A DNA stretch of 32,000 bases from assembly GCF_900095195.1 (NCBI RefSeq), contig NZ_LT606950.1:1057207-1089206 (forward strand). Reading direction: 5' to 3'. Under the pieces are notes generated by a model. The model ran no database searches and was not told the origin of the DNA. It was given only the letters and a program-made list of their open reading frames with translations. The stretch comes from Polynucleobacter necessarius (GTDB taxonomy: Bacteria > Pseudomonadota > Gammaproteobacteria > Burkholderiales > Burkholderiaceae). Below, piece after piece: positions 1,852 through 30,520 of this stretch (position 1 is its first letter; each line of letters opens with the position of its first letter). The position numbers were made by a program, and so were the translations under genes.

Positions 1852-3502
1852 CTAGACGTCTATCGCAGAGGCAGATCCAGCTTGCTTGCGAAGCTCAAAC
1901 TTCTGAATTTTTCCCGTCGAAGTCTTCGGCAGTTCACAACATACAATCGCCTTAGGCACCTTAAATCCTGCCAAGTGTTGCTTGCAATGGGCAATGATGC
2001 GCTGGCGTCACTTCCATACCAGGCTTAATTTCCAGGAAGGCGCAAGGGGTTTCTCCCCACTTTAGATCGGGTTTAGCCACGACCGCAGCCGCAATCACTG
2101 CTGGGTGGCGATAGAGAACATCCTCCACCTCAACCGACGAAATGTTTTCACCACCAGAAATAATGATGTCCTTACTGCGATCCTTCATCTTCACATAGCC
2201 ATCAGGGTTCATCACCGCCAGGTCGCCCGAATGGAACCAGCCACCCTCAAAGGCTTCTTTGGTTGCTTTCTCATTTTTGAGATAGCCCTTCATCGCAATA
2301 TTGCCCTTGAGCATAATCTCGCGCATGGTTTCTTCATCGGCGGGAACGGGTTTCATAGTTTCAGGATCCAATACCGCGATCGCTTGTTGCATGTGATAAC
2401 GAACACCTTGACGCGCATTTAAACGTGCTCGCTCGCTAATATCCACATCATTCCACTCATCTTGCTTCACGCATACCGCGGCAGGTCCATACACTTCAGT
2501 CAAGCCATATACGTGTGTGAGATCAAAGCCTAGCTTCTCCATACTTTCAATAATTGAGGCAGGAGGCGCAGCCCCAGCAATTAAGCCCTTCACGCCAGCA
2601 GGCACACCCACCTTAAGCTCATCTGGGGCATTGACAAGAAGGTTGTGCACAATCGGGGCCGCACAATAGTCTGTAACGCCATGCTCTTTAATGGCCGCAA
2701 AGATATGCTGCGCATCCACACGTCGTAGGCACACATTGATACCAGCGCGAGCTGCAATCGTCCAAGGGAAACACCGGCCATTGCAATGGAACACGGGGAG
2801 TATCCATAGATACACGGGGTGCTTATTGATATCCCAGTCAAGGACATTTGAGACAGCATTAATGGCCGCGCCCCGATGGTGGTACACCACCCCCTTTGGA
2901 TTGCCTGTGGTGCCCGAGATGTAGTTCAAGCAAATTGCTTGCCACTCATCAGCCGGAACCTGCCACGCAAACTGCGAGTCTCCTTCTGCGAGGAATTGCT
3001 CATACGTTACCTTGCCCAGCCTTTCACCAGGAACGTCATACTCTTTTTCTTCGACATCGATGACGAGAAACTCCCTGCCACTCTCTTTTTTCGCAAGCTC
3101 GAGAGCTTTTTTCATGACTGCTGAAAACTCAGGATCGACGATCACGACTTTTGCTTCACCATGATTGAGCATGAATGCAATGGACTCTGCATCCAAGCGA
3201 GTATTCAAGGCATTTAGGACTGCCCCGGCCATCGGAATACCAAAATGCGCCTCTACCATCGGCGGCGTATTTGGCAACATCACCGCAACGGTATCCCCCA
3301 AGCCAACGCCATGCTTTTGCAACGCACTTGCCAACTGACGACAACGATCATAGGTTTGTGACCAAGTTTGACGTAACTTGCCATGAATGACCGCAACTTT
3401 ATTTGGATAGATTTGCGCAGAGCGCTCCAAAAATAATAAGGGGGTTATTGGAGTGAAGTTCGCTGGATTGCGATCTAAACCTTGTTCATAAATATTTGTC
3501 AT
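1852..3502 (-). pseudogene. AMP-dependent acyl-CoA synthetase/ligase, frameshifted near the C-terminus
   Basis: The 513-aa ORF (1961..3502) carries AMP-binding motifs (YISGTTGNPKGV, GLTEVYGP, GWFHSGDLA, DRSKDIIISGGENISS) but ends in nonsense ...EVTPAHHCPLQATLGRI*. Shifting frame at about 1999 gives IIAHCKQHLAGFKVPKAIVCCELPKTSTGKIQKFELRKQAGSASAIDV* (1998..1852). This is the canonical C-terminus, including the catalytic-Lys motif PKTxxGKIxK. Confidence 0.8.
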
Positions 3503-3541: not shown

Positions 3542-4458
3542 TTAAATATCGGCCAGCGCTTTCACGTGAGCGACAACGCTACGACCCAATGCCGATAAGT
3601 TGTGACCACCTTCCAAACAGCTCACGATTCGATCATTTGCGTATTCATGCGCGATCTCTTTTAACCGCTTTGTCATCCATACATAATCATCTTCGACAAG
3701 ACCCATTTGACCCAAATCATCTTCACGATGTGCACCATAGCCAGCCGAAATTATGATGAGCTGTGGCTCAAAGTTGCGAAGTGCTGGTAACCACTTCTCT
3801 TCCACTACTGATCGGACGACATCGCCTCGAGTGGCAGCAGGCAGTGGAACATTGACCATATTATTGGCGGGATCAAGGCCGCTATAGGGATAAAACGGAT
3901 GCTGAAAAATGCTGCACACCAAGACACTAGGGTCATTAAAAAATGCTGCTTCAGTACCATTGCCATGGTGCACGTCAAAATCAATAATCGCTACGCGCTC
4001 AATTCCATAGGTTTCCATGGCATAACGTGCTGCGATAGCCACATTGTCAAACAGACAAAATCCCATTGAGCGAGTTGGCTCTGCATGATGGCCTGGCGGC
4101 CTTACAGCACAAAATACGTTCTCCACTCCACCATTCATCACTGCATCTACCCCTGCGATCGTTGCACCAGCCGCTCTCAATGCTGCTTGCCAGATATGCG
4201 GGTTCATAATAGTGTCCCCATCTAACAGTAACCACTTTGGGGTGCCTGCTCCTTAACGAAAGCAATATGATCAGGGCTATGAACCAGCTCCAACTGGTCT
4301 TCACTCGCTAAAGGGGCATCGAGATGATGGAGGAAGCGATCAATTCCACTTCGAATCATTTGATCATTGATCGCCTGAATACGCTCGGGGCACTCAGGAT
4401 GATGACTACCCATCTCATGCTTCAGAAAGTCTGCATGCGTTATGTATCCTGTTGTCAT
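3542..4458 (-). pseudogene. histone deacetylase/acetoin-utilization (HDAC/AcuC/APAH) family protein, frameshifted
   Basis: The N-terminal fragment 4222..4458 (MTTGYITHADFLKHEMGSHHPECPER...APQSGYC*) and the C-terminal fragment 3542..4207 (PPGHHA, DFDVHHGNGT) are one gene. A frame change at about 4225..4235 reads ...LLLDGDTIMNPHIW straight into the second ORF. Confidence 0.8.
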
Positions 4459-4541: not shown

Positions 4542-5813
4542 ATGAACATTCGCGTCTCCTACTTATTTCTGCTGATCGCTTTGTGCGCATGTACTACCGC
4601 TCCTATTCAACAAAATACCACTCAACAATCCATCGTAAACCAAGCCGATGATGCGGTTACAGAAGCACGTTATAGCCAAATCTTGAGCGCGTTACTGAAC
4701 CAAGTTTCCCAATCCCAAGAAATCCCTCTCCAAAGCCTTGAAAATGGCTTTTCTGATGCTAAAACGATTCCCTCTATACGCAAATTGGTATTACCCCCAT
4801 CGGGTACATTCAAGAAAAACTGGCTGGCCTACCGTAAGCGCTTCATTGAGCCAGTGCGCCTGAAAGCAGGCAGGGCGTTTTGGGATGAAAACCAGGCCTT
4901 TTTAGCCAAAGTCGAGCAAGACTCAGGGGTGCCCGCAGAGATCATTGTGGCCATTATTGGCATTGAGACGATTTACGGTCGTCAAACAGGCTCATTTCGG
5001 GTAAAGGATGTTTTATCCACCCTTGCCTTTAGCTATCCTGACACCCCAAACAAGACTGCTAGAGAGCAGCTTTTTAAAGACCAACTTCAAGAACTCATTC
5101 TGATGTGCTGGACCGAGGCTGGAGGAAAATTACCTGGGCAAAATAGCGGCCAAGGAGTCAATGCCACCCGCTTCAATAGTTGCCTCAACCAAAACAGCTC
5201 TTATGCAGGCGCAATCGGGTTGCCCCAGTTTATGCCCAGCAGCATTCGTAGTTTTGCAGTCGATGGCGACGGGGATGGGCGCATTGATTTAAAACAAAGT
5301 CCAAAAGATGCTATTACCAGTGTTGCCAACTTTATGAAAAAGCATGGCTGGCAAGCTGGGATGCCGATTTCGTTTCCTGTGCAAGAAAGTGCTATCGCTG
5401 CCGCTAAGCAATTAGCGGATGGTGAGCCTCAACTCAAATATACCGTTATCGAACTCATTGAAAAAGGAATTTTGCTGCCACAACAAGGGGATTTACAACG
5501 GGGTGGCGTAGAACATCAAAGCAAAGCCCTGATTGTGGATCTCCCCTATCCAGATAAAGATGGAAACGATCAAGCGCAGTACTTTGTGGGCTTGAATAAC
5601 TTTCTAACTATTGTGCAATACAACCGGAGCTACTTCTATGCTCAGAGTGTTGCGGAATTTGCTGAAGCGCTTGGATATAAAAATCAAAGCATAGTTCCAA
5701 CCACTTCATCGATAAAAGCGGCAGATCAAAAAATGGTGCCGATAAATCCAACACAAAGTCTACCAAGAAAGCTGGGTCTAAGAAAAAACCCAAGACCACT
5801 TAAGCCAGCTTAG
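4542..5813 (+). CDS. mltB: lytic murein transglycosylase B family, probable lipoprotein
   Basis: MNIRVSYLFLLIALCAC is a signal/lipobox-like N-terminus. Other features are the catalytic-Glu region IIGIETIYGR, AGAIGLPQFMPSS and GDGRIDL. The track start at GTG 4509 is 11 codons upstream; the ATG at 4542 is preferred. The last ~45 aa form a basic, low-complexity tail. Confidence 0.85.
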   Translation: MNIRVSYLFLLIALCACTTAPIQQNTTQQSIVNQADDAVTEARYSQILSALLNQVSQSQEIPLQSLENGFSDAKTIPSIRKLVLPPSGTFKKNWLAYRKRFIEPVRLKAGRAFWDENQAFLAKVEQDSGVPAEIIVAIIGIETIYGRQTGSFRVKDVLSTLAFSYPDTPNKTAREQLFKDQLQELILMCWTEAGGKLPGQNSGQGVNATRFNSCLNQNSSYAGAIGLPQFMPSSIRSFAVDGDGDGRIDLKQSPKDAITSVANFMKKHGWQAGMPISFPVQESAIAAAKQLADGEPQLKYTVIELIEKGILLPQQGDLQRGGVEHQSKALIVDLPYPDKDGNDQAQYFVGLNNFLTIVQYNRSYFYAQSVAEFAEALGYKNQSIVPTTSSIKAADQKMVPINPTQSLPRKLGLRKNPRPLKPA

Positions 5814-6721
5814 GCTGGAAAAACCCCAGTAGAAAGATAGCGATCACCACGATCACAAACAATAAAAACGATCGTAGCATTTTCAACTTGACGGGCAATA
5901 CGCAGAGCGACAACCAGCGCCCCACCTGCAGAAATGCCACAAAAGACGCCTTCTTCTACAGCCAAACGTCTAGCCATATCTTCGGCATCTGCTTGTGTGA
6001 CATATTCAATGCGATCAACACGATCACCCTGATAAATCTTAGGCAAATACTCCGGCGCCCACTTACGAATACCCGGAATTTGAGAGCCCTCTTCAGGTTG
6101 AGCCCCAATAATCTGAATCGCAGGATTCATGGATTTGAGATAGGTTGATACACCAGTAATCGTTCCTGTAGTCCCCATCGCCGAAACAAAATGAGTAACT
6201 TGTCCATTTGTATCACGCCAAATCTCAGGGCCCGTTGTTTCAATATGCGCCCTGGGATTATCGGGATTGGCAAATTGATCTAGCAAGCGGGCACGGCCTT
6301 CACGCTGAAGTTGCAAGGCATAATCTCTTGCAAACTCCATCCCCCCAGAGGCAGCCGTCAGAATGAGTTCTGCACCATAAGCCGCCATACTTTGGCGCCG
6401 CTCAATACTTTGATTTTCTGGCATTACTAAGACCATCTTGTACCCCAACATTGCAGCCGTCATTGCTAATGCAATGCCAGTATTACCACTTGTTGCCTCG
6501 ATGAGGGTATCGCCAGGTTTAATTTCTCCGCGCTCTTGTGCGCGCAGAATCATCGACAGCGCAGGTCGGTCTTTAACCGACCCGGCTGGATTATTACCTT
6601 CTAACTTACCTAGAATTACGTTGTTACGCTTCTCGTTTTCTAAACCAGGAATACGTTGCAATCGCACCAACGGTGTGTTGCCAACAGTCTGCGAGATTGT
6701 TAGGTAAGAGGGTTTGCTCAT
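5810..6721 (-). CDS. cysM: cysteine synthase B (O-acetylserine sulfhydrylase B)
   Basis: 303 aa and near-colinear with E. coli CysM as I recall it (GNTPLVRLQR, KLEGNNPAGSVKDR, IEATSGNTGIALAM, CDRGDRYLSTGVF). Confidence 0.95.
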   Translation of the reverse strand: MSKPSYLTISQTVGNTPLVRLQRIPGLENEKRNNVILGKLEGNNPAGSVKDRPALSMILRAQERGEIKPGDTLIEATSGNTGIALAMTAAMLGYKMVLVMPENQSIERRQSMAAYGAELILTAASGGMEFARDYALQLQREGRARLLDQFANPDNPRAHIETTGPEIWRDTNGQVTHFVSAMGTTGTITGVSTYLKSMNPAIQIIGAQPEEGSQIPGIRKWAPEYLPKIYQGDRVDRIEYVTQADAEDMARRLAVEEGVFCGISAGGALVVALRIARQVENATIVFIVCDRGDRYLSTGVFPA

Positions 6722-6762
6722 AGCCCCATTTTAGCCACAAGCGGACCTAAACTCTGAAGGGC

Positions 6763-7188
6763 TTAATTTCGGCGATGTGGCGTTGAACGCTCTATTTGAT
6801 GGCGATTACCAGTCTGATGACGCGAATTGCTTCTACCAGAAGCCCCGCCGTCCTTTTTGGTCCGACCGTTGGGCTCCCGAAATGAACTTAGTGCCTCAAT
6901 GGTTAATCCGTTGTCTACCATTTTTTCTACGGACCGCATACCAATGCCGCGGACCCGCTTCTGTAAATCATTAGCATCTTGAAAGTGTCCTCCATCCGCA
7001 CGCTCAGCAATAATTGTTCTCGTTTTTGATGGGCCAATACCCTTAATGCTCTCTAACTCTGATTGCGTTGCTGTATTGACATTTACTGGTGATGCACTTG
7101 CTATGCCTAAAGATGAAATTGCCAATATAGCCGAGACCAATGCTGATTTTATAAAACCCAAGTCTTTGAAATGAAAACGATTCGTCAT
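6763..7188 (-). CDS. comEA: ComEA-family helix-hairpin-helix DNA-binding protein, periplasmic
   Basis: Signal peptide followed by VNVNTATQSELESIKGIGPSKTRTIIAER...LQKRVRGIGMRSVEKM (two HhH motifs). GGAGAA lies upstream of the ATG. Carries an unusual ~45-aa basic C-terminal tail. Confidence 0.75.
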   Translation of the reverse strand: MTNRFHFKDLGFIKSALVSAILAISSLGIASASPVNVNTATQSELESIKGIGPSKTRTIIAERADGGHFQDANDLQKRVRGIGMRSVEKMVDNGLTIEALSSFREPNGRTKKDGGASGRSNSRHQTGNRHQIERSTPHRRN

Positions 7189-7312: not shown

Positions 7313-8065
7313 TCAGTTACTCAGAATAAATTCCGCAGCCCGTTTGATCAGCTCAGGCTCTGTTTGATTGAAGCCATGATAGGCAAAGGAGTCGCAAACA
7401 TTTCCCTCGCTAGCGCCTCCTTCGATGATTTCCAACTTAGAAACGAACTCTTTTGGTCTTCCTTCAAGAATTCGTCGAGTTGCCGATAATGACGTTCCAG
7501 CACAAGCATCTTCCAAATGATGAATACCAGGAACTGGTAAGTTAACTCTCTCATCCAAAGACGCAGGCTGAATGGTTCCAGCGATAATAATTCCCGAAAG
7601 TAGCTTGGATGAGATATTTAGCTGACTAGCAAAATACGTAGCAGTGGAGGTACCCATGCTGTGCCCAAAAATCCAAACAGGTAAATTAGTTTTGTTTTTG
7701 TAGTATTGAACTACTTCACCAACGCGGCTCAAATGATCTTTTCGCTCCCTTAGGTTGCCTCTTCGCAAATCTCCCAAATCGTATGGAGTATCCACCAACA
7801 CTGCATCAATTTGGTATTGCGCCCAGAGGTTCATTGAGCGCACGAAAGTATGGCGATTTTTGGTACCTCCATCCTCTTGAAGGCGGAGAAGTCCACCACC
7901 ACCGGGAAATAACAGAACTAATGCCTTAAGATTTTGCGCAGAAATCAATAGAGTCCGAGTAGGCGGGTCTTGGTGATGTGCAATATCAAAGACTTGACCA
8001 TGAGCATTGAAACTAATCTGACAAAGAAAAACTATCAGATAAATCTTCAAAAGATTAACTGCCAA
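7313..8065 (-). CDS. secreted alpha/beta-fold serine hydrolase, unknown substrate
   Basis: 250-aa ORF with signal-like N-terminus (LKIYLIVFLCQISFNAHG|Q) and the nucleophile elbow GHSMG (VWIFGHSMGTS). It starts at a TTG and overlaps the upstream gene by 11 nt (8055..8065). Confidence 0.65.
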   Translation of the reverse strand: MAVNLLKIYLIVFLCQISFNAHGQVFDIAHHQDPPTRTLLISAQNLKALVLLFPGGGGLLRLQEDGGTKNRHTFVRSMNLWAQYQIDAVLVDTPYDLGDLRRGNLRERKDHLSRVGEVVQYYKNKTNLPVWIFGHSMGTSTATYFASQLNISSKLLSGIIIAGTIQPASLDERVNLPVPGIHHLEDACAGTSLSATRRILEGRPKEFVSKLEIIEGGASEGNVCDSFAYHGFNQTEPELIKRAAEFILSN

Positions 8066-8843
8066 TGATTCCCTTTAATCCAGTATAGATTGATACAGCT
8101 GTAGTGCCTAGCGCTACTACTGTGCCGCCATATTCTTGAAGTGTTTTCATCAAGCCATGAACATTTTTAATGGATGCCCCACCGTCTTTCAGATTCAGCG
8201 AAGCCAGTGTTAAGACTGAATTTACTAGACCTTCTCGTCTAATCCTCTTCTTGCTAGCATATGCAACGCCTCCAAGAAACATGCCCGTCAAAAAACTAAA
8301 AGCAATACTTGCCGAATATTCCAATACCTCTTTCCATTCGAATAAGTTTTGTGGCCATACGGGCGAACGATCAACCATGCTTGTAATCCAGCTCATACCA
8401 ATGACAGATGCAATCGCCAAAAAAGCAACGCCGATAAACCATGGCAGAAGCTTGTGCGAGTGGCTTTTAAACAAGTAATAGGCAAAAGGCAATGGCACAA
8501 CCATCGAAACTAGCCTCAGATAAATCATTTTCGTGTCATATACAACCGTGATTAGCCAGTGCGCTAACAACAACAAACATAAAGGTACGAGGATATAGAG
8601 AGCAATATCACGAGCCCAACTTAGCATTGATCGCTTAGCTAATTTCGAATTTTGCTCTTCGAGGATATGCTCGAGTTCAGCTATACGAAATTCATAAGCC
8701 TCAGTACTTGGAATCGCAGCAAGCTTAGCTTCTAGCTCGGCCACTTTCATCATCATGGGTTTAAAAAGGTATAGATCGCGACTGCACGTTTTACAGACGT
8801 GAGCCTCTTCAGAAACCTCAGAGAGACAGTAAGGACAATTCAT
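8055..8843 (-). CDS. zinc-ribbon / coiled-coil / multi-pass membrane protein, unknown function
   Basis: 262 aa. The N-terminus CPYC-x11-CKTC is a zinc ribbon. A heptad-like stretch follows (KVAELEAKLAA...RIAELEHILEEQNSKLAKR), then at least 4 hydrophobic helices. Its ATG overlaps the upstream stop (TAATG at 8841..8845). Confidence 0.7.
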   Translation of the reverse strand: MNCPYCLSEVSEEAHVCKTCSRDLYLFKPMMMKVAELEAKLAAIPSTEAYEFRIAELEHILEEQNSKLAKRSMLSWARDIALYILVPLCLLLLAHWLITVVYDTKMIYLRLVSMVVPLPFAYYLFKSHSHKLLPWFIGVAFLAIASVIGMSWITSMVDRSPVWPQNLFEWKEVLEYSASIAFSFLTGMFLGGVAYASKKRIRREGLVNSVLTLASLNLKDGGASIKNVHGLMKTLQEYGGTVVALGTTAVSIYTGLKGIIGS

Positions 8844-9280
8844 TACTTATTCACTACCAAATTCAATACTAAATTTGTCTCGCGACCCTCAGAGTCTTTC
8901 ACAGTCACGCGTATCGTATGAGTTCCTGGAGGTACATCTGCTTTAGCGAAATCAATGCCATTTGCAGAAATTGCGTTTTTCAATCTCGGCGTTAGATCCA
9001 CAAAAGGGGATTTCATATAAACCACCTTCACTGAATTCGGATCAATTTTGGCATCCCCACGTGGCTCGAAATTAATCTTGAAATCAAATGGGGCGGTTAC
9101 AGGGGTATCTGCCTCAGGGGATGCGAGTTTAATTGCTGGTCCACGTGAAATACCGCGCGTAGCCAAAGTGCCAGCAGCTGGCGGAAGTGCCGCCTCTTTA
9201 GCGCTAATCAACGGCGCAGAAATAGCCAATTGAGAGGCCGTCAGCACTAGTGAAGCAAGAATTACTTTCGTAAATTTCAT
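8843..9280 (-). CDS. small secreted protein, probable beta-sandwich, unknown function
   Basis: 145 aa with a signal peptide (MKFTKVILASLVLTASQLAISA). The mature part alternates beta-like segments (FDFKINFEP, VKVVYMK, HTIRVTVKDSEGRETNLVLNLVV). It starts 44 nt downstream of the CHAT pseudogene. Confidence 0.65.
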   Translation of the reverse strand: MKFTKVILASLVLTASQLAISAPLISAKEAALPPAAGTLATRGISRGPAIKLASPEADTPVTAPFDFKINFEPRGDAKIDPNSVKVVYMKSPFVDLTPRLKNAISANGIDFAKADVPPGTHTIRVTVKDSEGRETNLVLNLVVNK

Positions 9281-9324
9281 AAAAACTTTTAAATAATTAA
9301 ATGACTCAACGGATAGATCTTAAA

Positions 9325-12005
9325 TCAATCGCCAACCACTACGAACGGAGTCCAAAACAAAGGGTGGGCATAGGCATATTTCATGTTACCGCCCTCTTTC
9401 ATGCCGCCTTGATCAATTTGATTCAGCATAGCCTGACGTAATAGCTCGGCCTTACTAGCGCCCTGTGCCTTTTGTTGATTTTTAAATAAATCTGTCATTA
9501 GGGTTTGGGATGCCACAGAATCAACAGGCCAATTTGATACCAACAAAGCCTTAGCGCCGGCGAAGAAGAAGGCTCTGCCCAATCACAATACCGCCTACGA
9601 TCCCGAGCCTTCACCGGCAGCTGAGCTGTATTGCATGCGGATAAAACTACCCAATCTGCATCAAGCTTTAAGGTAATGACTTTATCAGAAGGTATTTGAG
9701 CAACAACAATATCTCTGGTTAACCAAGGCACAGTTTTGTATCCACTAAATGGTGTTGCTCCACCTTTTACAGGTTGCGCAGTTGGCTTTGTTACCAATAA
9801 AGAAAGAGGCAATTGACCAAGCTCGGCATGCGGCACTGTGAGCATCACCTTTTACCAACGAAGGCACTTTGAACGGGAGCCAGTATTTGTTGATATAACT
9901 GGTTTGCCAAGGCGACATCAAATGGCGGAATCTCATCAATCGTTGCAACTCCAGGATCTAATGATTTACGTAGCTGGGTAACCTCTTTTGATACTTGGTT
10001 ACGCCCTATCGATAATTGCGCAAATTGAACTGGCTTATCCTTTGCGATTGCCCACACATACCAGACGCTATCAGCAAAGTACCAAGACACCAAAACTTCA
10101 TCAGGCTTGAGGGCTTTTTGAGTACGCTCAACAGAAGCTGGTTTTGGCTCGACTAACTCCGCATAATCAGGAAATTTCCGTTCAATTTCTTTCTTAAGAT
10201 CCTCACGCTGTGATTTGAACCCCGCAATATCCGTGCGAATCTTCGCCTGCAGAGCCGGCAACTGTTGATCGGGGGGCGCAGATAACAAGCCAGTCAAAAG
10301 CTCAGAAAGTGTATTAATACGCTGCTGAAGATCTTGCTCACGACGGGCAAGATTTGCTAATTAAGGATCTGTAATATTTGCTCGCGCTGCACTGGCCGTT
10401 AGAGCGCGTTGCACACCACTACCACGAGCTAAATCTGCCATCTGAAATGCCTCAGCCGCTGCAGAACCTCCAGGATCAGATTTAGCTTGCTGCGCTAATG
10501 AAGCCAAATACTCCTCCAAAACAAATGTCATTCGCTGGGTTTGGCGTATTGTTGTTGTTGCATTCTCAGAATCATTTCGAGTCTGATCTACAAGATCAGG
10601 GACTGCCTGCTTGAATTCAACCAATGCTTGGGATCCCTGCCCAGAGGCTTGCAAGGCAGATGCATTGAATGCTCGTATGGTTGCGAGGCTGGTCGAATTC
10701 TTTTCCATTCGTGCACCGCCTTCGTGAGCATTTCAGAAGTCATCGAGACTGCTTGAGGCGCTTTTCCGGTCTTGATTAATGCAATAGCCCAATCTAAATC
10801 ACCTGTTTGATAGCGAGAGGCGATCTCCGGATCAGCTTTAAGGTCTTCAATCATTTCACTGAAAACCTTATCAGCTTGGGCATATTTTCTATCTGCCGTT
10901 AAGGCAGTGCCCAAAGACTTTCTTGCTGCGGCAATTAAATGTGGGGCGGAGTAATTGGTTGATTGTTGTGCAACCTTGAGAGTTGCCTGGGCCAATAATA
11001 CGGCCTCTGCCTGCCTCCCTTGTTCACTAATAATTTTAGATAAGGCTAATAATCCAAAACATGTTGCTGCTGAATTCACCCCTTCTCGATTAATAGCCAA
11101 TACAATTGATTCTCTTGCCCAATATTCAGCATCTATTAAACGACGCTGCCCAAGGTATGCATTTGCTAACTCATTATATAAAGCAGCTCTTTGACTAAAA
11201 GCGTACCTTGGAGTGCTTGCAATATCCTAACTTCATTATCTAGCGCATCTTTACCACTATCTTTAACGTTATCGAGAATGATTTGATTTAAACCGAGTGC
11301 AGTCCGAAAACTTCTCTCCGCCTCAATAAATTTACCCTCTGACATAAAAATTTTGCCACGGGCACGTTCATAGCCTAATTGCCAGTTAGTGCAGTAGATG
11401 TAGTTTGGATTTTTCGCAACACTCAGCAGGTTCGAGTAATCAGATTCAAGTGTATTTAAAGCTTTATTTGCACAATCGAAATCCCCCATACGAAGACATA
11501 TATTCACGATGGTTTGTCCGCTGCTAATTCTCCACCCAGCAAGTTGATTGGGAACCATCGCCTTTGTATCTTCCGCGATTTTTTTTGCAAGAACTAAATT
11601 GCCCCTCAATGCTTCGTGTTGAACATAATGCATTCTCTCGTCAATTTGCATAGCAATATCACTGCTTGGGTAATCTAATGCCGTTTTTTTATAGTTCTCT
11701 AAAGCTTCTTTACTATTTTCTAGAGCATTTTCAGCAACAGCTCTTTGGTAGTAATAGTGATTAAGAATATTAGTATCGTTTGTTGAAGGTTTTGACTTGG
11801 CTAGAACTTTTTTTGCTTTCTCAATAAGCGCCTGGTCTTGTCGAGTTTGGTTCAAAATTTGAAGAATATCTTTTACATCACGCGGAGGTGCTTTTATATT
11901 CTCGACATCTATCACGTCCTTCGTCGGCGCGGCGATTGAAAGATGGCAAACAAAAATTACGCTGAAGCACATCAAGAAAGCACGAATCAGGGGAAGCTTG
12001 CGCAT
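9325..12005 (-). pseudogene. exported TPR-repeat + CHAT (caspase-like peptidase) domain protein, heavily degraded
   Basis: Six track ORFs are consecutive pieces of one ~890-codon gene: 11166..12005, 10588..11100, 10361..10708, 9845..10297, 9498..9848 and 9325..9582. It begins with AGGAG plus ATG at 12005 and signal peptide MRKLPLIRAFLMCFSVIFVCHLSIAAP. TPR-like repeats follow, then CHAT hallmarks (LTVPHAELGQLPLSLLV, WVVLSACNTA, LGRAFFFAGAKALLVSNWPVDS, AHPLFWTPFVVVGD*). Lesions: frameshifts near 11170-11225, 10705-10720, 9845 and 9620-9632; in-frame stops at 10361..10363 (TAA), 9595..9597 (TAG) and 9583..9585 (TGA); and an apparent internal deletion near 9675-9690. Confidence 0.85.
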
Positions 12006-12090: not shown

Positions 12091-13134
12091 TTAAAAAGCG
12101 GTTTTAAGGCTAGGTTGCAAAGGGTTTGCTAAAAAACCAGAATTTGCCTCAAGCCACTCGATGTAACGACCCACGCCTTGCTCCACATTCAGGAAGGGTT
12201 CTGTATACCCTGCGGCGCGGAGCTTAGTCAGGTCTGCTTGAGTGAAGCATTGATACTTGCCTTTGAGAGCATCCGGAAATGGAATGTACTCAATGGCCTT
12301 TTCTTTGACTAACTCTTGTAGTGTTGCTGGTTGTGCTTTATCTAGTTTACGCATAGCGTTTGCCACCGCATACGCTACATCATTAAAGGGCTGTGCACGA
12401 CCAGTACCTAAATTAAAGATGCCGCTGATTTCAGGATGATCCAAAAAGAATAGATTAACCTTTACGACATCCTCTACAGATACAAAATCACGACTCTGCT
12501 CGCCAGGAGCATAACCACTGTACTCACCAAATAATTTGACGTGACCATTAGCTTTGTATTGATGGTATTGGTGAAACGCTACCGACGCCATGCGACCTTT
12601 ATGTGACTCGCGCGGACCGTAAACATTGAAGTAACGGAAACCAACGACTTGTGCAGAATTTGCATTCTCAGCAAAACGCTTACGCATTACTTGATCAAAT
12701 AAAAACTTTGAATAGCCATAGATATTTAGTGGCTTCTCGTGTTCACGATTCTCAACAAATACATCAGAGCCGCCATAGGTGGCAGCAGATGATGCATATA
12801 GGAGCTGTACTTTTTGCGCGGTACAGATATCGAGCAAATCCATGGTATAGCGATAGTTGTTCGCCATCATGAAAATGCCGTCTGATTCCATGGTGTCAGA
12901 ACACGCACCCTCGTGAAACACCGCTTTTACCTTACCGAATCGGCCACTTCTAAACGCTTCTAGAAATTCGTCTTTATCAAGGTAATCAATGATGTCAAGA
13001 TCAGCTAAATTGCGATACTTATCTGCTGGTCGTAAGTCGTCTACAGCGATTACGTTTTTCTCACCGCGAGCATTTAGCGCTTGAACAATATTGGCGCCAA
13101 TAAAACCGGCAGCCCCGGTTACGATAATAGTCAC
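12091..13134 (-). CDS. hldD: ADP-L-glycero-D-manno-heptose 6-epimerase
   Basis: 347 aa with the Rossmann N-terminus [13 protein letters not shown] and motifs YGYSK and ASSAATYG. It has a GTG start overlapping the hldA stop (GTGA at 13131..13134). Confidence 0.9.
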
Positions 13135-14060
13135 TGTAGTTCCTCAGAAGTAACGGTAGCAGTACCCAATTTACCAACCACAATACCACCAGCACGATTG
13201 GCCAATGCCATCGCCTTTTCTAAAGGCCATCCCGATGCTAGCGCAACTGCCAAAGTGGCAATCACAGTATCACCAGCACCTGATACATCAAAGACCTCTC
13301 TAGCTTGCGCTTTCACATGGCTTACACCTGCATCGGTATATAAACTCATACCCTCTTCAGAGCGAGTTAATAACAATGCTTGTAGATTTAGGGACTTTCT
13401 CAGGGCTTGGGCTCTACTAGTGAGATCATTTTCACTTGTCCATTGCCCAATAACCTGGCGAAGCTCGCTACGATTTGGAGTGAGGACCGTTGCCCCACGA
13501 TACTTCTCATAATCTTCGCCTTTAGGATCAACCAAAATCATCTTGTTTTGCGCCTTGGCCTGCTCAATCATATGGGCGACCTGACCCAATGCACCTTTAC
13601 CGTAGTCCGACAGAATCACGACATCGGCAGAGCCTACTAATTTTTCAAAACGCTCTAACTTATGGGCTAGCGCTTTTTCACTAGGGGTCTCTTCAAAATC
13701 CAAGCGAATGAGTTGCTGCTGACGCGCAATCACACGCAATTTCACAATCGTAGGTACGTCTGCATCAATCTCTAATTGGCTATCAACGCCACCGGATTTG
13801 AGCAGATCAATCACTCGTTGGCCCGGCTCATCTTTACCCACAATAGCCAAAATAGTGGTTTGGGCTCCTAGGGCAGCTACGTTACGGGCAACGTTTGCAG
13901 CCGCTCCCAATCGCTCATTAATCTTGCCCACTTGCACCACAGGAACAGGCGCTTCTGGAGAGATGCGATGTGTATCGCCAAACCAATAACGATCGAGCAT
14001 CACATCACCCACTACCAGTAAGCGGGCTTTAGAGAACTGTTCGCGATTGGCTTTTTCCAT
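13131..14060 (-). CDS. hldA: D-beta-D-heptose 7-phosphate kinase (RfaE domain I only)
   Basis: 309-aa ribokinase/PfkB-fold protein ([29 protein letters not shown]). No adenylyltransferase domain is attached. Confidence 0.88.
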
Positions 14061-30161: not shown

Positions 30162-30520
30162 GGGGTCGACATGGTTTCGACGTAGATTACAAAGCATCAA
30201 GGGCATACCGAGAACCCGTTATCTCGTAAATCAATGGGAATGTAATAACTGCTAACGACGAACGTTACGCACTAGCCGCTTAATTGCGGTTGCCCCTGAA
30301 CTGATTCTCTCTTGGGTCAGGTAGCGCAAGCTACATCAGGGTCATATACAAGAGATAAGGCTATTTTGCGTCACGAAGAATAGTTCGAAAACCAAGTGAA
30401 TCGTCAGCGAGAAACGTGTCAATCCGTGCCTCATTGATTAAATCAAACGATATGACTAAGTATGTAGAACTTGTTGTAGAGGATTTGCGGACGCGGGTTC
30501 GATTCCCGCCGACTCCACCA
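30162..30520 (+). ncRNA. ssrA: transfer-messenger RNA (tmRNA)
   Basis: The 5' end GGGGTCGACATGGTTTCGACG pairs with the 3' end ...CGACTCCACCA, an acceptor stem with a G3:U pair. The T-arm is GGGTTCGATTCCC. The tag ORF GCT AAC GAC GAA CGT TAC GCA CTA GCC GCT TAA (30251..30283) encodes ANDERYALAA. The RNA is colinear with E. coli SsrA as I recall it. Confidence 0.95.

Follow-up and report, generated by a model that had tools for sequence, protein, structure and literature searches.

The 32,000-nucleotide stretch of Polynucleobacter necessarius DNA studied here (hereafter the window; contig NZ_LT606950.1, positions 1,057,207 to 1,089,206) was found to contain, at 7313..12005, a cluster of genes for envelope proteins. 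The core of this cluster comprises three genes, encoding an exported protease of the caspase fold, a small exported protein of 145 amino acids and a zinc-ribbon inner-membrane protein of 262 amino acids (ZnTM). These three almost certainly constitute a conserved functional module. The best explanation overall, to which we give a probability of roughly 0.5, is that the cluster represents a three-gene envelope module acting in regulated proteolysis. On sequence grounds, the small protein and ZnTM represent two uncharacterised families that have no model beyond a zinc ribbon.

Conservation of the Three-Gene Core

An alignment of the small protein was searched against one genome per GTDB species, which gave 72 loci. 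The loci were from Polynucleobacter, Curvibacter, Hylemonella, Limnohabitans, Dechloromonas and metagenome-assembled genomes (MAGs) labelled Rhodocyclaceae, Alcaligenaceae, Comamonadaceae and Bordetella. In every one of the 72 loci where both genes were readable, the small gene was followed immediately by the ZnTM gene, and in the metagenome and divergent-branch loci too the two genes were adjacent. The two genes overlapped by 1 nucleotide in 59/75 loci and by 4 nucleotides in 5/75, and are in this way almost always translationally coupled. A gene for an exported caspase-fold protease adjoined the pair in 65 of the 72 loci, which is 65 of the 66–67 loci with enough flanking sequence. Among the seven loci without a protease, five are cut short on the upstream side, one (L030) has short flanks and in one (L020) the CHAT gene is cleanly absent. 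All three core genes were adjacent and intact in 60+ related loci; the window copy does not share this state, its protease gene being a pseudogene. The original prediction had pointed to a survey of co-occurrence with signal-peptide CHAT genes, and in this survey the homologues were found next to the protease rather than scattered and unlinked.

The trio was found in eight or more unrelated genomic settings (hldD|comEA, pntB, serS, CLC channel, sox genes and others). The Polynucleobacter hldD/comEA synteny is common to ~29 loci, and the remainder lie beside pntAB, serS, tyrS, a CLC channel, ABC transporters and others. No further neighbour family was found to recur across these contexts beyond local synteny. 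In free-living Polynucleobacter, the hldD|comEA site likewise carries the genes for CHAT and for the 145- and 261-amino-acid proteins, but not the hydrolase that follows them in the window. A metagenome scan with the N-terminal zinc-ribbon motif yielded mostly unrelated zinc-ribbon proteins, with ~16 of 80 loci encoding full-length relatives. A divergent ZnTM subgroup from metagenomes (25–34% identity) again contained CHAT, small and ZnTM genes, the order being sometimes ZnTM-small-CHAT, or CHAT lying on the opposite strand. Five further divergent branches were found, in which the small gene abuts ZnTM in 5/5 and CHAT or C14 genes are also present; the contigs of the divergent-branch loci had 35–71% GC, and the linkage was kept in ZnTM branches with as little as ~27% identity. 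Protein searches listing 120 matches gave nearly only close Polynucleobacter-like relatives, and the distant members came from a search of cluster representatives. Because the same gene set recurs in >80 loci in differing genomic contexts, the arrangement is far from chance.

The original prediction had presented the cluster as a four-gene unit. The hydrolase was found in only 17/72 loci, and the core is therefore three genes. The prediction that the partners are envelope proteins is borne out, as all of them carry export signals or transmembrane (TM) helices. Its view that the cluster maps to no named system also holds for the conserved module. A description of the linked 145-amino-acid and zinc-ribbon membrane genes, or of the trio, was not found in the literature searched, which is not proof of its absence.

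Exchange of the Protease

The adjacent protease was a TPR-CHAT protein of ~1050 amino acids in most loci and a Peptidase_C14 protein in others. The C14 proteins had at least three architectures, as follows:

C14 architecture 1: Sec signal with a C-terminal caspase domain
C14 architecture 2: caspases with a twin-arginine signal, 276–612 amino acids
C14 architecture 3: C14-DUF4384, as a rule next to an OmpA-like gene

All the proteases of the module were found to carry Sec or twin-arginine signals and to keep the His and Cys motifs. The protease of the module is thus not TPR-CHAT throughout, since exported Peptidase_C14 replaces CHAT in several lineages. This swapping of CHAT and C14 indicates that the small/ZnTM pair is the constant part of the module and that the exported caspase-fold enzyme is the variable part. 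Twin-arginine-type signals (e.g. NRRTVLKTAGAL) were present in the C14 partners at L048 9343..10173, L050 6123..7883 and L075 9275..11113. These signals suggest that such C14 partners are exported folded via the twin-arginine translocation pathway, unlike the Sec-type CHAT proteins. A tandem pair of full-length CHAT paralogues was found upstream of the small gene at L057 1611..9954 (P. hirudinilacicola) and L064 1505..7949.

The Small Exported Protein

The small protein contained a signal peptide, then a mature N-terminal tail with the conserved motif LI[ST]xxEAxxP, the motif RGIxRGP about 20 residues further on, and an Ig-like beta-sandwich. Its open reading frame (ORF) in the window is intact. 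The predicted 145-amino-acid, beta-rich protein with a signal peptide is thus borne out by the sequence and by the Ig-like sandwich of the AlphaFold2 (AF2) model. A total of 934 homologues were matched, and among the 120 matches listed, identity ranged from 83 to 100%. The mean column identity within the genus was 90%, and the ratio of nonsynonymous to synonymous substitution rates (dN/dS) against GTDB relatives was ~0.01–0.07 where dS was measurable, synonymous sites being otherwise saturated. The motif [RA]G[ILVM]xRGP was found in 79/79 of the unique small-protein sequences first surveyed, and the RGP core was retained in five divergent-branch small proteins. The tail motif was unchanged whichever type of protease adjoins the pair.

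The AF2 model had a mean predicted local distance difference test (pLDDT) score of 65, with the tail (residues 23–45) below 50 and the sandwich at 70–80, and the tail is accordingly predicted to be disordered. Foldseek gave weak matches to FN3/PKD/CopC-type and generic Ig folds (E>=0.02), no Pfam, NCBIfam or PADLOC model matched the protein, and the family has no relative of solved structure. A second small-protein paralogue that does not contain RGP was present in L161 (10156..10617), with E=1e-21 to the family profile.

The Zinc-Ribbon Membrane Protein

ZnTM contained a C4 zinc ribbon on the cytoplasmic side, followed by a coiled coil (~27–69), four TM helices and a conserved C-terminal helix (SIYTGLKG). 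The strongly hydrophobic segments were residues 73–104, 107–125, 130–158 and 178–196, followed by a fifth, weakly hydrophobic C-terminal helix. Hydropathy analysis gave a positive-inside pattern, by which the N-terminus lies in the cytoplasm. The architecture expected for the 262-amino-acid protein (zinc ribbon, coiled coil and at least four TM helices) is therefore upheld, with one correction: the spacing of the ribbon is CxxC-x10-CxxC (C3, C6, C17, C20), not CxxC-x11-CxxC. The residues C3/C6/C17/C20/P164/G187 were invariant across 45 diverse members, and the conserved polar residues H95, D103, R110, D158 and E172 lie together on the periplasmic side, in the loops and at the outer ends of the helices. 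The AF2 model of ZnTM had a pLDDT of 69, with 80–89 in the TM part.

The family profile matched 803 clusters at 50% identity (E<=1e-3). Pfam matches were to zinc-ribbon models only; Zn_ribbon_3 was matched by 15/45 members (best E=1.8e-6), the window protein itself falling below the cut-off. Neither NCBIfam nor PADLOC had a family for the protein. No solved relative was significant by sequence, and by fold the best Foldseek match had E=0.28. One source named the protein P0046 RseC/MucC ('positive regulator of sigma E activity'); this label was rejected, as there was no NCBIfam match and only zinc-ribbon Pfam matches. On the same grounds ZnTM was rejected as an anti-sigma factor.

Extra free-standing zinc-ribbon/coiled-coil ORFs of 61–68 amino acids were present between the small gene and the full-length ZnTM gene at L084 2706..2903, L086 7001..7186 and L090 1489..1695, and P0255 contained a tandem duplication of the zinc-ribbon/coiled-coil unit in one protein. 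These free-standing and tandem units point to an oligomerising cytoplasmic module. The database protein P0259 was a ZnTM-C14 read-through. Among the ZnTM-like proteins, only fringe ones without the conserved motifs stand alone; two such proteins (L089, L099), which have neither the family's conserved motifs nor the partners, were left out of the family core. In L057 the ZnTM gene was split into two ORFs (8435..8914 and 8886..9227), by a frameshift or a sequencing error.

The Locus in the Window

The cluster of the window contained four genes, all on the minus strand:

9325..12005, minus strand: exported TPR-CHAT (caspase-fold) protease pseudogene (six ORF fragments; Pfam CHAT and TPR matches; tblastn)
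8843..9280, minus strand: exported small protein, 145 amino acids (intact ORF)
8055..8843, minus strand: zinc-ribbon inner-membrane protein ZnTM, 262 amino acids (intact ORF)
7313..8065, minus strand: exported alpha/beta serine hydrolase, 250 amino acids (GHSMG and weak Pfam matches; intact ORF)

A 44-nucleotide gap (9281..9324) separates the CHAT and small genes, the small and ZnTM genes overlap in TAATG at 8843, and the ZnTM and hydrolase genes overlap by 11 nucleotides (8055..8065). The cluster is flanked by cysM/comEA (5810..7188) on one side and by hldD/hldA (12091..14060) on the other. The ORFs thus confirmed the gene order, spacings and flanks given in the original prediction. The database entries of P. 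necessarius that are 100% identical to the 262- and 145-amino-acid proteins carry the name 'hypothetical protein'. A scan for promoters and terminators gave fewer sites than in shuffled sequence, and hence no information on an operon. A transfer-messenger RNA gene was found elsewhere in the window (30162..30520, plus strand), with the tag peptide ANDERYALAA.

Decay of the Protease Gene

The intact orthologues of the CHAT protein were 1049–1057 amino acids long. The ancestral protein, of ~1050 amino acids, would have contained a signal peptide, then TPRs and then CHAT at 702–1049 (166 bits, Pfam E=1.3e-48 in L001), and the CHAT protein has a signal peptide without a TM anchor. In the window, the region 9325..12005 consisted of six ORF fragments with ~893 codons left, the difference from ~1050 being due to a 465-bp deletion. 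The Sec-signal, TPR and CHAT architecture of the original prediction was therefore right, and its figure of about 890 ancestral codons was too low. The pseudogene retains the signal peptide MRKLPLIRAFLMCFSVIFVCHLSIA/AP. The last fragment (9325..9582) matched CHAT with 56 bits (E=5.7e-15; Pfam PF12770 cut-off 24), and the N-terminal fragments matched TPR. By tblastn, residues 1–781 and 932–1049 of the intact orthologue of a free-living Polynucleobacter (L001, 1049 amino acids) were matched in the window in three frames, and residues 782–931 were unmatched. By phmmer no solved-structure relative of the CHAT region was found, and a profile matched TPR proteins only.

The lesions were mapped by pairwise DNA alignment with the intact CHAT gene of L009, the closest genome relative, as the reference:

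11215..11225 (~11219), minus strand: 10-bp frameshifting deletion at reference codon ~263; the frame switches between ORFs 11166..12005 and 10588..11100
~10717, minus strand: 1-bp deletion at reference codon 433
10361..10363, minus strand: in-frame TAA nonsense codon, CAA>TAA, at reference codon 552 (DPQLA in the reference, DP*LA in the window)
~9853, minus strand: 1-bp deletion (L009 alignment)
junction ~9686, minus strand: 465-bp deletion; reference codons 778–932 lost
~9628, minus strand: 5-bp insertion (L009 alignment)

The 465-bp deletion takes out the catalytic His (ATHG motif, reference H898), and the Cys motif LSACNTA is still present. The dyad H898/C949 was invariant in 15 intact CHAT orthologues, and the window copy has thus lost it. 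With four frameshifting indels, one nonsense codon and the deletion of the catalytic His, the TPR-CHAT gene of the window is a dead pseudogene. Its 5' part (window 10500..12000) had a G+C content of 0.40–0.43, vs. ~0.46–0.49 in the surrounding window.

The other genes of the cluster had no lesions: six were found in the ~3.15 kb of CHAT and none in the other ~1.97 kb. If these ~1.97 kb had been neutral for an equal time, ~3.8 lesions would be expected by a Poisson estimate, and the probability of none is ~0.02. As dN/dS against GTDB relatives was saturated at synonymous sites, relative distances were compared, and the three proteins of the window were no more diverged than the flanking housekeeping genes (distance ratios 0.98–1.13 vs. 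1.02–1.39). The lesion-free genes and this divergence suggest that the pair keeps some function alone, or that the protease was lost recently. Two more genes of the window were found to be frameshifted relative to their orthologues in the free-living L001, which fits ongoing gene decay in a symbiont genome. These are a histone-deacetylase-family gene (3545..4458, minus strand, frame change near 4230) and an AMP-binding acyl-CoA synthetase gene (1855..3502, minus strand, frame change near 1995).

The Hydrolase and Other Accessory Genes

The predicted 250-amino-acid alpha/beta hydrolase with a signal peptide and GHSMG is well founded: it contained the GHSMG elbow, and the triad S136, D186, H230 together with C188 and C224 was invariant in 17 orthologues. 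Its Pfam matches were weak (LCAT 21.6 bits vs. a cut-off of 21; others below cut-off). The hydrolase of the window type lay directly after ZnTM in 17/72 loci and was missing from many free-living Polynucleobacter, and it was absent in L001–L004; it is therefore a lineage-restricted accessory and not a core gene. In other lineages an unrelated alpha/beta hydrolase sits in the same position, and a common origin of the two types was rejected, as no BLASTP similarity was found between them.

A further optional addition was a second protein of the C14-DUF4384 type, in most cases together with an OmpA-like gene. An extended variant with a C14-DUF4384 protein and then a small OmpA-like (peptidoglycan-binding) protein was present at L161 7860..10617, L164 6838..9233 and L165 1541..3636. 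In one group of related Burkholderiales MAGs, a 564-amino-acid protein without a Pfam or PADLOC match is encoded downstream of the module (L003 9010..10704, L007 11757..13457, L047, L049), and its recurrence is probably local synteny.

Comparison with Known Systems

The closest known characterised system is DdvA, an anti-sigma factor of Myxococcus xanthus with a periplasmic TPR-CHAT region and a conserved His-Cys dyad (PMC11506125). The premise of the original prediction that known TPR-CHAT proteases are cytoplasmic is therefore outdated, because the TPR-CHAT part of DdvA is periplasmic (PMC11506125). DdvA is one polypeptide, in which TPR-CHAT is joined to a single TM helix and to a helical anti-sigma domain that binds zinc (CHCC); an extracytoplasmic function (ECF) sigma gene is adjacent, and DdvA is proposed to cleave itself as a site-1 protease, which would start intramembrane proteolysis and so link proteolysis in the periplasm to a response in the cytoplasm (PMC11506125). 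Both systems have a periplasmic TPR-CHAT with a His-Cys dyad and a zinc-binding cytoplasmic module across the inner membrane. They differ in that the protease of the present module is a separate, soluble, exported protein, whereas DdvA is a single polypeptide. Instead of a helical CHCC domain and a single TM helix, the membrane protein of the module combines a zinc ribbon of the C4 type with a coiled coil and four TM helices. The module also has an obligatory third, Ig-like exported protein, its protease may be a Peptidase_C14, and it has no adjacent sigma gene.

In the envelope-stress cascade of RseA, RseB and DegS, a protease of the periplasm acts on an inner-membrane protein whose cytoplasmic domain binds an effector, and on the beta-rich periplasmic protein that is bound to it. 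The same three roles can be recognised in the present module, a likeness drawn from the textbook description. The module differs in having a caspase-fold protease instead of an HtrA-family serine protease, a polytopic membrane protein and no sigma factor. No homology of the module proteins to RseA, RseB or DegS was found in the NCBIfam and Pfam scans.

Craspase (type III-E Cas7-11 with Csx29) and the protease-gasdermin systems resemble the module in that a TPR-CHAT or caspase-like protease is the enzyme of a multi-gene module. Both are found in the cytoplasm, with a link to cas or gasdermin genes, whereas the present module has export signals and neither cas nor gasdermin neighbours. The window locus is not a craspase (Csx29) locus, as the neighbours are hldD/comEA or other housekeeping genes and a Sec signal peptide is present. 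The C14 variants matched only a generic 'caspase' model in PADLOC, other matches being sub-threshold noise, and the module could not be assigned to a gasdermin or other defence system. A survey of 2012 had already reported bacterial caspase homologues with N-terminal helices that probably serve as signal peptides (PMC3501461). The module's C14 variants fall within this population of exported or membrane-associated Peptidase_C14 proteins, which includes C14-DUF4384. The survey lists domain architectures, however, and the linked 145-amino-acid and zinc-ribbon membrane genes were not found described there or in the other literature searched (PMC3501461).

Proposed Mechanism and Alternative Explanations

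The module most likely works at the envelope, where an enzyme of the caspase fold would carry out regulated proteolysis; the mechanism by which it does so is one that we infer. Its likeliest function is regulated proteolysis in the periplasm with coupling to the inner membrane, and the particular form set out here is proposed tentatively. The small protein and ZnTM would associate in a fixed stoichiometry on the periplasmic side of the inner membrane, and the exported protease would act on this complex or be held by it. The Arg-containing tail of the small protein would be the likeliest recognition site, either as a cleavage site or as a securin-like pseudosubstrate. The proteolytic event would be passed through ZnTM to the cytoplasmic zinc-ribbon/coiled-coil module. 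Overall, this would resemble a DdvA- or RseA/RseB/DegS-type device split over three polypeptides.

Several observations weigh against this mechanism. The first Arg-Gly of the tail motif is not strictly invariant, the variants RA, RS and AG being found. No transcription-factor or sigma gene was found adjacent to the module (sigma-70 Pfam, called genes of L001–L008 and L161–L165), and a protein with four TM helices is not a typical substrate of intramembrane proteolysis. The structure models of the small protein and ZnTM are moderately confident (pLDDT 65 and 69). The pair is also found without a protease. In the free-living Polynucleobacter sp. MWH-Berg-3C6 (L020, 7825..9343) the order is hldD|small|ZnTM|comEA, with CHAT cleanly absent and the pair intact, and the genome of the window retains small and ZnTM after the death of CHAT. 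The pair may therefore work without a neighbouring protease, or with one encoded elsewhere.

An anti-phage or conflict module is an unlikely alternative, in which the exported protease would sense an invader signal in the periplasm and ZnTM would be an effector (e.g. for membrane permeabilisation) or an alarm relay. Such a module would be similar to protease-gasdermin defence or to defence under the control of DdvA. Caspase-fold proteases are typical of bacterial conflict systems, and the periplasmic TPR-CHAT of DdvA was proposed to be a phage sensor (PMC11506125). The repeated swapping of the protease (CHAT and three C14 types), its tandem duplicates in L057, L064 and L165, the patchy distribution outside Polynucleobacter, the loss of the protease in an obligate intracellular symbiont and a BrnA antitoxin gene near the module in L165 would all agree with such a role. 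However, PADLOC gave nothing beyond the generic caspase model, the neighbours are housekeeping genes rather than defence islands, and in the ~29 loci with the Polynucleobacter hldD/comEA context the module keeps a single syntenic position in the core genome. The strong conservation of the small protein (90% mean column identity; dN/dS ~0.01–0.07) is unlike that of fast-evolving defence genes, and a gasdermin, nuclease, TIR or NTPase partner is absent.

A role in envelope housekeeping is judged about as improbable. The protease would mature or degrade periplasmic or outer-membrane proteins, small and ZnTM would be its adaptor and anchor, and added proteins such as the serine hydrolase and the OmpA-like peptidoglycan binder would help to remodel the cell wall or lipids. 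The core-like retention in streamlined Polynucleobacter genomes beside the lipopolysaccharide (LPS) heptose genes and lapB is in keeping with this, as are the accessory partners, which are envelope proteins (two unrelated alpha/beta hydrolases in the same position and OmpA-like domains with C14-DUF4384), and the two invariant Cys of the hydrolase, which are consistent with a periplasmic disulfide. The LPS-gene neighbourhood, however, is specific to Polynucleobacter, other lineages having unrelated neighbours, and this role would leave unexplained why the zinc ribbon and coiled coil on the cytoplasmic side are conserved. The only evident candidate for a substrate is the module's own small protein.

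That the four genes form no functional unit and are neighbours merely by the local synteny of one genus, as the restriction of the hydrolase to a subset of loci and the Polynucleobacter synteny shared by ~29 loci might suggest, is very improbable, and for the three core genes it is contradicted, the trio recurring outside that genus, in many unrelated surroundings and on contigs with 35–71% GC, with the order sometimes rearranged and adjacency kept.

Implications

Under the reading of the trio as a module for regulated proteolysis at the envelope, it is possible, although rather doubtful, that it represents a novel class of proteolytic switch across the envelope, in which the RGP tail of the Ig-like small protein, docked on ZnTM, would restrain the protease or be cut by it and a periplasmic event would be turned into a cytoplasmic or membrane response. 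If this is true, the switch would work without a sigma/anti-sigma pair, its trigger could be phage, a predator or envelope damage, and it would be a periplasmic bacterial analogue of separase-securin or caspase-substrate logic. Bacterial caspase homologues are numerous, and for almost none is a substrate or partner known. The module is compact, widespread and genetically simple, and a likely partner or substrate with an invariant linear motif is encoded next door, which makes specificity and regulation open to direct tests. CHAT and C14 proteases have been exchanged on a constant pair of partners. In Polynucleobacter, the locus is a clean case of partial decay in an obligate symbiont, in which the protease has been lost and its partners are intact.

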